This document shows, in pieces, positions 43,051-43,108 of a stretch of DNA of 64,000 nt. The stretch's first letter is position 1, and each line of letters opens with the position of its first letter. Location: assembly GCA_045114745.1 (NCBI GenBank), contig JBGULD010000049.1, positions 22,860-86,859 on the forward strand, in the 5' to 3' direction. This DNA comes from Bacilli bacterium (GTDB lineage Bacteria > Bacillota_I > Bacilli_A > RFN20 > CAG-826). Under the pieces are notes generated by a model, which saw only the letters and a list, made by a program, of their open reading frames with translations, was not told where the DNA came from and did no database searches. A program made the translations under genes and the position numbers.

Positions 43051-43108
43051 TTTTTTGAGACGAAAATCGCGATTTACCCCCTATTTATAATAATGAGAGG
43101 GCAAAAAT
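43051..43108 (+). promoter_or_regulatory. Conserved 5' module, copy 2
   Basis: 43051-43089 is 37/39 identical to 11129-11167. GAGAGGG SD at 43095-43101 and ATG at 43109. The block-to-ATG distance (19 nt) is the same as in copy 1. Confidence 0.6.

Follow-up and report, generated by a model that had tools for sequence, protein, structure and literature searches.

Several described systems share features with the element reported here. Toxin genes of unrelated sequence can stand under one common operator, as do the LexA-controlled tisB, symE and dinQ, and an arrangement is known in which the intrinsic terminator of an upstream gene overlaps the ribosome-binding site (RBS) of the next gene. Masking of the Shine-Dalgarno (SD) sequence, 5'-3' pairing and a stable fold are hallmarks of type I toxin mRNAs (PMC5416894; PMC6733600). 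In the RNA I of par/Fst, the SD of a small toxin gene is hidden by an intramolecular 5' stem-loop (5'-SL), and toxins of the Fst/Ldr family carry the motif PXXXG (PMC7472228). The aapA1/IsoA1 system of H. pylori shows a 5'-3' long-distance interaction together with successive anti-SD structures (PMC5416894; PMC6733600). In this work, a 64,000-nt stretch of a Bacilli bacterium genome (contig JBGULD010000049.1; hereafter the window) was analyzed. A module of about 52 nt occurs in it twice, in front of the gene of a 61-aa peptide with a single transmembrane segment and, 32 kb away, in front of an orphan gene for a 181-aa protein of the MazF/PemK fold. The best reading of the module, to which we give slightly less than an even chance, is that of a dedicated promoter to which a terminator/anti-SD insulator is fused.

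Two invariant boxes at a fixed distance

A sequence-only reading of this DNA had reported a 39-nt repeat with 37/39 identical positions, which ends 19 nt before the ATG of both genes and is followed by an SD in each copy, and the coordinates bear this out. Positions 11129-11167 and 43051-43089 differ only by TC versus CG, and the repeat was found to be longer than claimed, with 48/52 identical positions between 11116-11167 and 43038-43089. Beyond 11167 and 43089 the copies diverge completely (TAGTAGGAGGTATTTTTTT vs ATAATGAGAGGGCAAAAAT). The start codons lie at 11187 and 43109, and the SDs are AGGAGG (11172-11177) in copy 1 and GAGAGGG (43095-43101) in copy 2. None of 100 shuffles of the window contained two matches to the 39-mer. 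A profile search of the 64-kb window, made with the block and its closest relatives, returned these two sites (E 4e-17 and 7e-16; next best 0.41) and no third copy. Exact scans with the window 33-mer in species-representative genomes and with the block 26-mer in JGI metagenomes gave 0 matches, the window species not being in either collection. The two products had also been described correctly; the label "toxin-like", which had been applied to both, fits the MazF-like gene, whereas the toxin status of the peptide is not shown.

The conserved part of the module is split into Box 1, which holds a T-tract and the -35-like TTGAGA, and Box 2, which holds a C-tract and a putative -10 element (Table 1). 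Among five leaders of the window clade, 0 of 25 box columns and 12 of 14 spacer columns are variable (Fisher p 2e-8). The same pattern was observed in seven JAFRPF/JBGUIX leaders of three gene classes, with 1/36 variable columns in the boxes and 9/11 in the spacer (Fisher p 4e-7). The spacer is always 14 nt long in the window clade, and the JAFRPF/JBGUIX leaders align without gaps. Both mismatches between the two window copies fall inside the spacer, and two strains of the window species (MazF-like copy; L143, L144) have the same block as the window except for its middle part, where AAAATCGCG is replaced by AAAAGTGCG. In a presumed sister species, to which L145 (MazF-like) and L146-L155 (peptide) were assigned by their common sample series, Box 1 and Box 2 are the same in the peptide and MazF-like leaders and the same as in the window, and the spacers of the two leaders are of unrelated sequence (AGAAAATGCAAAAT vs GGTTTTAACAAATT) and equal length. 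Such a pair of invariant boxes, kept at a set distance by a free spacer, is typical of DNA elements that a protein reads, and a promoter is the simplest case. At the level of sequence, the arrangement of two boxes with fixed spacing upstream of a presumably transcribed region is that of promoters in general.

The same layout recurs in relatives. Most homologous loci of both families contain a T-run with a TTGnnA-like element, then CCTCC or CCCCC with TAT, then 8-17 AT-rich bases and the SD. When 55 non-redundant leaders are taken together, the T-run/TTG signal is highest 26 nt before the C-arm ends, an offset equal to TTGnnA-17 nt-(n)CCTAT, or to 20-21 nt when counted to TATTTA.

A canonical sigma-A (sigma-70) promoter consists of TTGACA-like and TATAAT-like hexamers 16-18 nt apart. 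In the module, TTGAGA is separated from TATAAT/TATATA by 25 nt, as the sequence-only reading had noted in calling the promoter non-canonical, and from TATTTA by 21 nt. A sigma-70-type promoter scan found no site at either block, and the control promoters of the window are canonical, the T-box leader being preceded by ATGACA-16-TATAAT and the L21 leader by TTGACT-18-TATATT with TG; the module is therefore not an ordinary sigma-A promoter. The SigI, extracytoplasmic function (ECF)-type and sigma-H/ComX-type (CGAATA) promoters, the Spo0A box, the LexA/Cheo box and CIRCE were compared as well, and none fits the invariant positions. A SigI promoter has ACCCCC at -35 and CGAA at -10, about 14-15 nt downstream. 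Here ACCCCC is followed by TATTTATATAGTAGGAGG or TATTTATAATAATGAGAGGG, with no CGAA, and many relatives have CCTCC. The sequence CCGAA(T/C) in two relatives (L063, L035) resembles the -10 boxes of sigma-H/ComX and is not general. No alternative sigma factor gene was found among the annotated open reading frames (ORFs) of the window, where only rpoD is present, and no regulator gene was found to adjoin either copy. With Rfam 15, nothing was detected in the window apart from the T-box (8315-8498) and an L21 leader (14338-14413), and permissive scans of both module loci gave nothing near gathering scores, in agreement with the earlier statement that the block was not recognized as any known riboswitch or leader.

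The likeness of the two leaders was measured by local alignment scores between peptide and MazF-like leaders. In at least five lineages, the within-genome scores exceed all cross-genome peptide-MazF scores (permutation p < 1e-5). The within-genome score and the best cross-genome score are 40 and 25 in the window, 34-35 and 25 in JBGUIX/JAFRPF, 54 and 26.5 in JAKSVI, 33 and 28 in JAZRZI, and 26.5 and 20 in JAFZRR; in the window, JBGUIX/JAFRPF and JAKSVI, the within-genome scores are even higher than the best orthologous ones. Other genomes, e.g., those of L019/L082 and L016/L096, lack such an excess. The homogeneity skips the spacer in two clades, so simple gene conversion is insufficient to account for it. 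Each genome seems to keep its boxes to a sequence of its own, and this points to a common reader that drifts from one species to the next. In the window, where the spacer is nearly identical too (12/14), a recent conversion may have come in addition.

The module is not restricted to these two genes in every genome. The metagenome-assembled genome (MAG) RGIG2675 contains seven copies, of which five stand at type I toxin-like loci and one each at the peptide gene and the MazF-like gene. The JBGUIX/JAFRPF core CCCCCTATTTGTGATATAGGAGG occurs six times in it, once at each of these two genes and at four sites that no ATG follows, and the fifth type I-like site has a slightly variant core. At the five loci, the module is followed by a leader of about 100 nt, and the SD is masked by an upstream anti-SD that covaries in the paralogues (GUCUCCU:AGGAGAU vs GCGCUUCUUC:GAGGAAGUGC). 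Their ORFs encode hydrophobic, lysine-tailed peptides of 21-23 aa (e.g., MEIIIVFMTLLLLMLVEVKKNRN), the RNA shows a 14-nt 5'-3' complementarity (UAGUUACGUAUAGG/CCUAUACGUAACUA), and its predicted fold is far more stable than that of shuffled sequences (z -6.75). The PXXXG motif is absent from both the 61-aa peptide of the window and the 21-23-aa peptides of RGIG2675, and no antisense or antitoxin RNA gene was identified, nothing being found with Rfam. The loci are therefore called type I toxin-like only; they resemble type I systems in RNA architecture and do not belong to the type I (Fst/Ldr) toxin-antitoxin (TA) family. A metagenome scan with an 18-mer of the type I-like 5' untranslated region gave one unrelated GC-rich match only. 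On the 5.8-kb RGIG2675 contig, an FMN (flavin mononucleotide) riboswitch (L126, 695-816, + strand) adjoins a cluster of three type I toxin-like loci.

Inverted repeat over the Shine-Dalgarno sequence

The C-tract of Box 2 and the SD form an inverted repeat, as its 5' and 3' arms, respectively. The sequence-only reading had noted a C5 tract able to pair with each SD apart from one mismatch, and this was confirmed, the mismatch being C.A. In relatives, the pyrimidine tract and its flanks are likewise complementary to the SD and its flanks, as in ACCTCCTA...TAGGAGGT, CCCCCTTA...TAAGGGGG, CCCCCTTT...AAAGGGGG and GAACCTCTCTATTA...TGATAGGGAGGTTT. Pairing outside the SD core is enriched over shuffles (p 0.011, 0.0006 and 0.029 for the outer pairs), and variants with GGGGG have a compensating C, giving a C:G pair, in 5/5 cases. 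An anchored count of the core pairs gave T:G 24 times and C.A 18 times, with no bias to sense-strand G.U. The architecture of C-arm, 8-18 nt, GGAGG-like arm and start codon occurs 62 times in 780 kb (window and loci). In 49 cases it stands at peptide or MazF-like starts, and the other 13 are reverse-strand palindrome images or spurious short ORFs; these genomes therefore do not use the architecture generally.

Many leaders have an A-run and a U-run flanking the hairpin, as intrinsic terminators do. The copy 1 hairpin is the sole terminator-like element in the gap between valS and the peptide gene; together with the following UAUUUUUUU it was not called by a simple terminator scan, because its stem is interrupted. 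In a test that ignores kinship among the leaders (no phylogenetic correction), the hairpins were weaker where a separate upstream terminator is present (median -5.8 kcal/mol) than where it is absent (-11.0 kcal/mol; p 4e-4), with p 0.002 for the peptide family alone and p 0.15 for the MazF family alone. The window agrees with this trend, since copy 1, with no other valS terminator, folds at -10.7 kcal/mol and copy 2, behind the xerD terminator, at -5.8 kcal/mol. The family-wide link to absent upstream terminators supports a terminator role of the inverted repeat.

Moreover, the inverted repeat is kept even where its G-arm is no working SD. At a group of peptide loci with a leader of about 100 nt (L011, L022, L024, L026-L034, L039, L040, L047, L052), the G-arm of the module (UGAGGGG...) pairs instead with a covarying CCCCUCA about 70 nt downstream, beside the true SD. 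This resembles the closed-mRNA design of type I toxin messages, here on a core gene that is conserved. The first paired base is always the U that directly follows the AT-rich segment. Transcription would therefore start at or upstream of the G-arm, which would be fully transcribed, and the TATAAT-like "loop" cannot be the -10 element because it lies too close upstream of the transcribed G-arm.

Proposed mechanism and its alternatives

We hypothesize that the 39-mer is the core of a bipartite promoter of about 52 nt, in which Box 1 provides the -35-like element and Box 2 holds the -10 element. Transcription would start about 2 nt past the end of the repeat, near 11169 and 43091. We place the putative start after the AT-rich segment and before the G-arm because the repeat ends at 11167/43089, as would fit a shared promoter with gene-specific transcripts, and a promoter lying wholly upstream of the copy 2 C-tract does not fit because that tract follows the xerD terminator by only about 30 nt. 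The C-tract would then be located just upstream of the start, and the complementary SD or SD-like G-tract at the extreme 5' end of the transcript. Read-through RNA from the upstream gene would contain both arms and form the hairpin with its U-run, leading to termination and SD masking, whereas in RNA started in the module the C-arm would be missing and the SD free. In this way, the module would both drive its gene and shield it from upstream transcription. Its users would be the peptide-radC operon, the orphan MazF-like gene and, in a related genome, the five type I toxin-like loci, with each genome of this uncultured rumen Bacilli lineage having its own sequence version for a small gene set. 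Both the insulation logic and the dedicated trans-acting factor are what we infer from these patterns.

Several observations weigh against the insulated promoter. The start site and the promoter activity are deduced from geometry alone, and Box 2 matches none of the -10 consensuses considered: CCCTAT lacks the A at -11, and TATTTA at the 21-nt spacing lacks the T at -7. A central C.A mismatch is present in 17/49 non-redundant leaders, including both window copies, and since it lies in the middle of the stem any RNA hairpin would be weakened. The correlation with upstream terminators is not significant for the MazF family, and kinship could bear on the whole test. Furthermore, the segment between the arms is the same in all copies of a genome and differs between genomes, which insulation leaves unexplained. 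In nine genomes of the L002-clade, the genome's own core is found once per genome, at the peptide gene, so multi-gene use is lineage-restricted; use across three gene classes was seen in one MAG only.

The sequence-only reading had offered three explanations, of which a shared promoter or operator for a dedicated factor is now the best supported, by the two boxes, the free spacer, the non-sigma-A geometry and the copies in a relative. Its second one, an SD-sequestering leader, was half borne out, in that the C-tract/SD inverted repeat is real, covarying and gene-specific. The corresponding alternative is that transcription starts upstream of the C-tract from a promoter in Box 1 and its T-rich flank, and that the hairpin in the gene's own mRNA keeps translation off until processing, a small RNA, a protein or heat opens it. 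We consider this possible, though unlikely. The copy 1 hairpin does enclose the SD and is stable (z -3.0), the pairing covaries and reaches beyond the SD, the module-bearing type I toxin-like loci show SD masking and 5'-3' pairing further downstream, and precedents exist in the Fst/par 5'-SL and in H. pylori aapA1 (PMC7472228; PMC5416894). On the other hand, the copy 2 hairpin is weak (z -1.5), and the short distance from the xerD terminator leaves no room there for a promoter and a start. The C-arm and the "loop" are invariant as DNA while the 3' arm differs between the genes, and there is no sense-strand G.U bias. Because it is weak in copy 2, is kept without an SD and tracks missing terminators, the inverted repeat more likely acts on read-through than on its own mRNA. 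A protein operator is an improbable alternative, in which a dimeric repressor, perhaps MazF-linked, would bind CCYCCTAT/ATAGGAGG across -10/+1 and co-repress the module genes. The palindrome does straddle the putative -10/+1 region, the copies of a genome share their sequence with the inter-arm segment included, and type II TA loci are typically autoregulated via such operators. However, a dimer operator would not usually show an arm-to-arm distance of 8-17 nt across genomes, the 3' arm is no more than the SD itself, and the compensatory arm substitutions fit base pairing better than protein contacts. The inverted repeat is also present at the peptide gene where the search found no MazF-like gene, and neither copy has a regulator gene beside it.

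It is still less probable that two ordinary weak promoters without common regulation have become alike through gene conversion. The nearly identical window spacer suggests a recent tract, and the genomes with no special leader likeness would agree with it; but the sister species and JAFRPF have the same boxes around an unrelated spacer, and a conversion tract would not skip the middle. The homogeneity also recurs in at least five lineages and reaches a third gene class. The third explanation of the sequence-only reading, the 5' boundary of a mobile cassette inserted by the neighboring tyrosine recombinase, has hardly any credit left. Such a recombinase gene precedes copy 2, and the peptide coding sequence (CDS) is GC-rich (47.8%, 99th percentile; window 37.4%), as had been claimed for both genes; the MazF-like CDS is ordinary in this respect (38.5%, 64th percentile). 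The recombinase gene is chromosomal, of the XerD type, and stands behind dinB in relatives too, no recombinase is near the peptide copy, and no attC-like element or flanking repeats were found. Homologues of both proteins (about 200 each) come from uncultured "Bacilli bacterium" and "Erysipelotrichaceae bacterium" MAGs of rumen and gut. Both genes are single-copy, and the contexts valS-peptide-radC and dinB-xerD-MazF-like are kept across many of these MAGs, in dozens of species; in many species-representative genomes the genes lie on one contig about 30 kb apart, like in the window. The conserved single-copy synteny rules out the mobile-cassette reading. An integron or other recombinase-linked cassette was rejected on the same grounds.

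Beyond the insulated promoter itself, the module could mark a lineage-specific growth-arrest regulon of type I-like peptides, the orphan MazF and peptide-radC, read by a dedicated, fast-evolving trans-acting factor. We regard this extension as speculative and rather unlikely. The factor could be an alternative sigma factor, an activator or an RNA. All copies in a genome would change along with it, and the boxes would for this reason be the same within a genome and different between genomes. RadC is competence-induced in several bacteria, and such a regulon, if true, could be a stress or competence programme in never-cultured bacteria. If the insulated promoter is correct, it would be a compact way to silence harmful genes beside busy housekeeping genes, with a promoter placed inside a terminator/anti-SD hairpin so that only transcripts begun there are translated, and it would be a sequence tag by which unrelated toxin-type genes are tied together under common regulation. 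With the invariant boxes, the regulon could be listed in any complete genome of the group and its reader captured as with a bait, and their genome-specific sequences would offer a clean case of co-evolution between a cis element and its reader.

Gene context and likeness to described systems

The features of both loci are listed in Table 1.

Table 1. Position of the module copies, their parts and the adjoining genes in the window
Feature	Position	Strand	Remarks
Module copy 1, 52 nt, putative promoter	11116..11167	+	48/52 to copy 2; nhmmer E 7e-16; between valS stop (11126) and peptide gene
Box 1 copy 1 (TTTTTTGAGAC), T-tract and -35-like TTGAGA	11129..11139	+	Invariant in both genes, window and sister species
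Spacer copy 1 (GAAAATCGTCATTT), 14 nt	11140..11153	+	Sequence free, length fixed
Box 2 copy 1 (ACCCCCTATTTATA), C-tract (anti-SD, 5' arm of inverted repeat) and putative -10	11154..11167	+	Invariant; C-arm pairs with SD arm
Hairpin copy 1 (UACCCCCUAUU/AGUAGGAGGUA), encloses SD AGGAGG, then UAUUUUUUU	11153..11179	+	-10.7 kcal/mol, z -3.0
61-aa single-transmembrane peptide gene, conserved	11187..11372	+	190 homologues, 18 invariant residues
radC, TTG start	11376..12069	+	Pfam RadC and UPF0758_N; same arrangement in relatives
xerD intrinsic terminator, GAGTTGC-TTCG-GCAACT and T-run	43025..43049	+	T-run extends into module
Module copy 2, 52 nt	43038..43089	+	48/52 to copy 1; directly 3' of xerD terminator
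Box 1 copy 2	43051..43061	+	Invariant as in copy 1
Spacer copy 2 (GAAAATCGCGATTT), 14 nt	43062..43075	+	Sequence free, length fixed
Box 2 copy 2	43076..43089	+	Invariant
Weak hairpin copy 2, CCCC...GAGAGGG, SD 43095-43101	43079..43101	+	-5.8 kcal/mol, z -1.5
181-aa orphan MazF/PemK-fold gene	43109..43654	+	PemK/MazF Pfam E 2e-9; AlphaFold2 (AF2) model and Foldseek

Copy 1 follows valS (8532-11126), which has the T-box upstream. The 61-aa peptide belongs to no Pfam or NCBIfam family. The TTG of radC lies 3 nt past the peptide stop, with the same gap in relatives, so the peptide gene heads an operon and is probably co-transcribed with radC. The GGAG of radC sits in the last codons of the peptide gene (11362-11378), which suggests translational coupling of the two genes.

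The AF2 model of the MazF-like protein was matched by Foldseek to the MazF of S. aureus and B. subtilis with a target TM-score of 0.76. The protein has extra N- and C-terminal helices, among them a conserved 30-residue N-terminal helix (QLEWIKRQLEY), and its homologues (about 200) share 39 invariant columns. Neither the stretch from the xerD terminator to the ATG nor the 286 nt downstream contains an antitoxin ORF, and PADLOC reported no family. A type II MazEF module was thus rejected, the fold being present and an adjacent antitoxin gene absent. At MazF-like loci of one clade (L091, L092, L096, L097, L101, L104, L105), another conserved motif, the small hairpin GGATAAC-TAAA-GTTAT, replaces the C-arm before the SD. 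On the 3' side of the gene, nadD/yqeK-yhbY-yqeH-yqeG converge on it, and the convergent gap of 286 nt contains at 43670-43740 an 11-bp inverted repeat (GGTTTTCCACA/TGTGGAAAACC) around two TACTAA-type motifs. This repeat is not a standard terminator and could be a small RNA or a protein-binding site. Paired TACTAA-N3-9-TACTA motifs occur eight times in the window (3020, 39011, 43683, 43694, 48522, 54171, 58588, 63570) with 0.19 expected, mostly in intergenic regions and on either strand, and the TACTAA-type repeat family is also found at 3013-3046, 34165-34198 and 58581-58614. These pairs may be the binding site of a regulator. The only mobile-element gene among the annotated ORFs is an IS605-family OrfB/TnpB gene (47117-48277, - strand) with HTH_OrfB_IS605, OrfB_IS605 and Cas12f1-like TNB domains. 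The window was traced to MAG GCA_045222705.1. Its annotated rest is of housekeeping type, with tig, lon, the obg region, ruvA, relA, hisS and aspS as well as tkt, dinB, parC/parE-like genes, rpoD and dnaG.

The module lies outside the Rfam families, canonical sigma-A promoters, complete MazEF modules, the Fst family and cassette systems, and its likeness to described systems is partial in each case. As in the 5'-SL of par/Fst RNA I (PMC7472228), an intramolecular stem may hide the SD of a small gene, and in a relative the module is located at type I toxin-like loci with masked SDs and strongly structured mRNAs. In contrast to par/Fst, the C-arm is probably upstream of the start, within the promoter; a convergent antisense RNA, direct repeats and a bidirectional terminator were not found; the peptides have no PXXXG; and the same module also serves the MazF-like gene and the peptide-radC operon. 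The long-leader peptide loci and the RGIG2675 RNAs are similar to aapA1 (PMC5416894; PMC6733600) in pairing their 5' end with a distant segment and masking the SD; however, such folding belongs to transcripts downstream of the module, and the window leaders are only about 18 nt long. With the LexA regulon the module shares the principle of scattered, unrelated toxin-type genes behind one common upstream element. The differences are that its invariant boxes contain no Cheo/LexA box (GAAC-N4-GTTC), that it is bipartite with a -35/-10 geometry, and that its sequence is genome-specific and not lineage-conserved. Like an overlapping terminator and RBS, copy 1 is the sole hairpin with a U-run after valS and has the SD of the following gene as its 3' arm, but here the arms appear to enclose a promoter, and copies of the element stand at unlinked genes. 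By analogy, the module may be viewed as a combination of a shared regulon promoter or operator, an SD-masking hairpin of the toxin-mRNA type and a terminator that overlaps the RBS.

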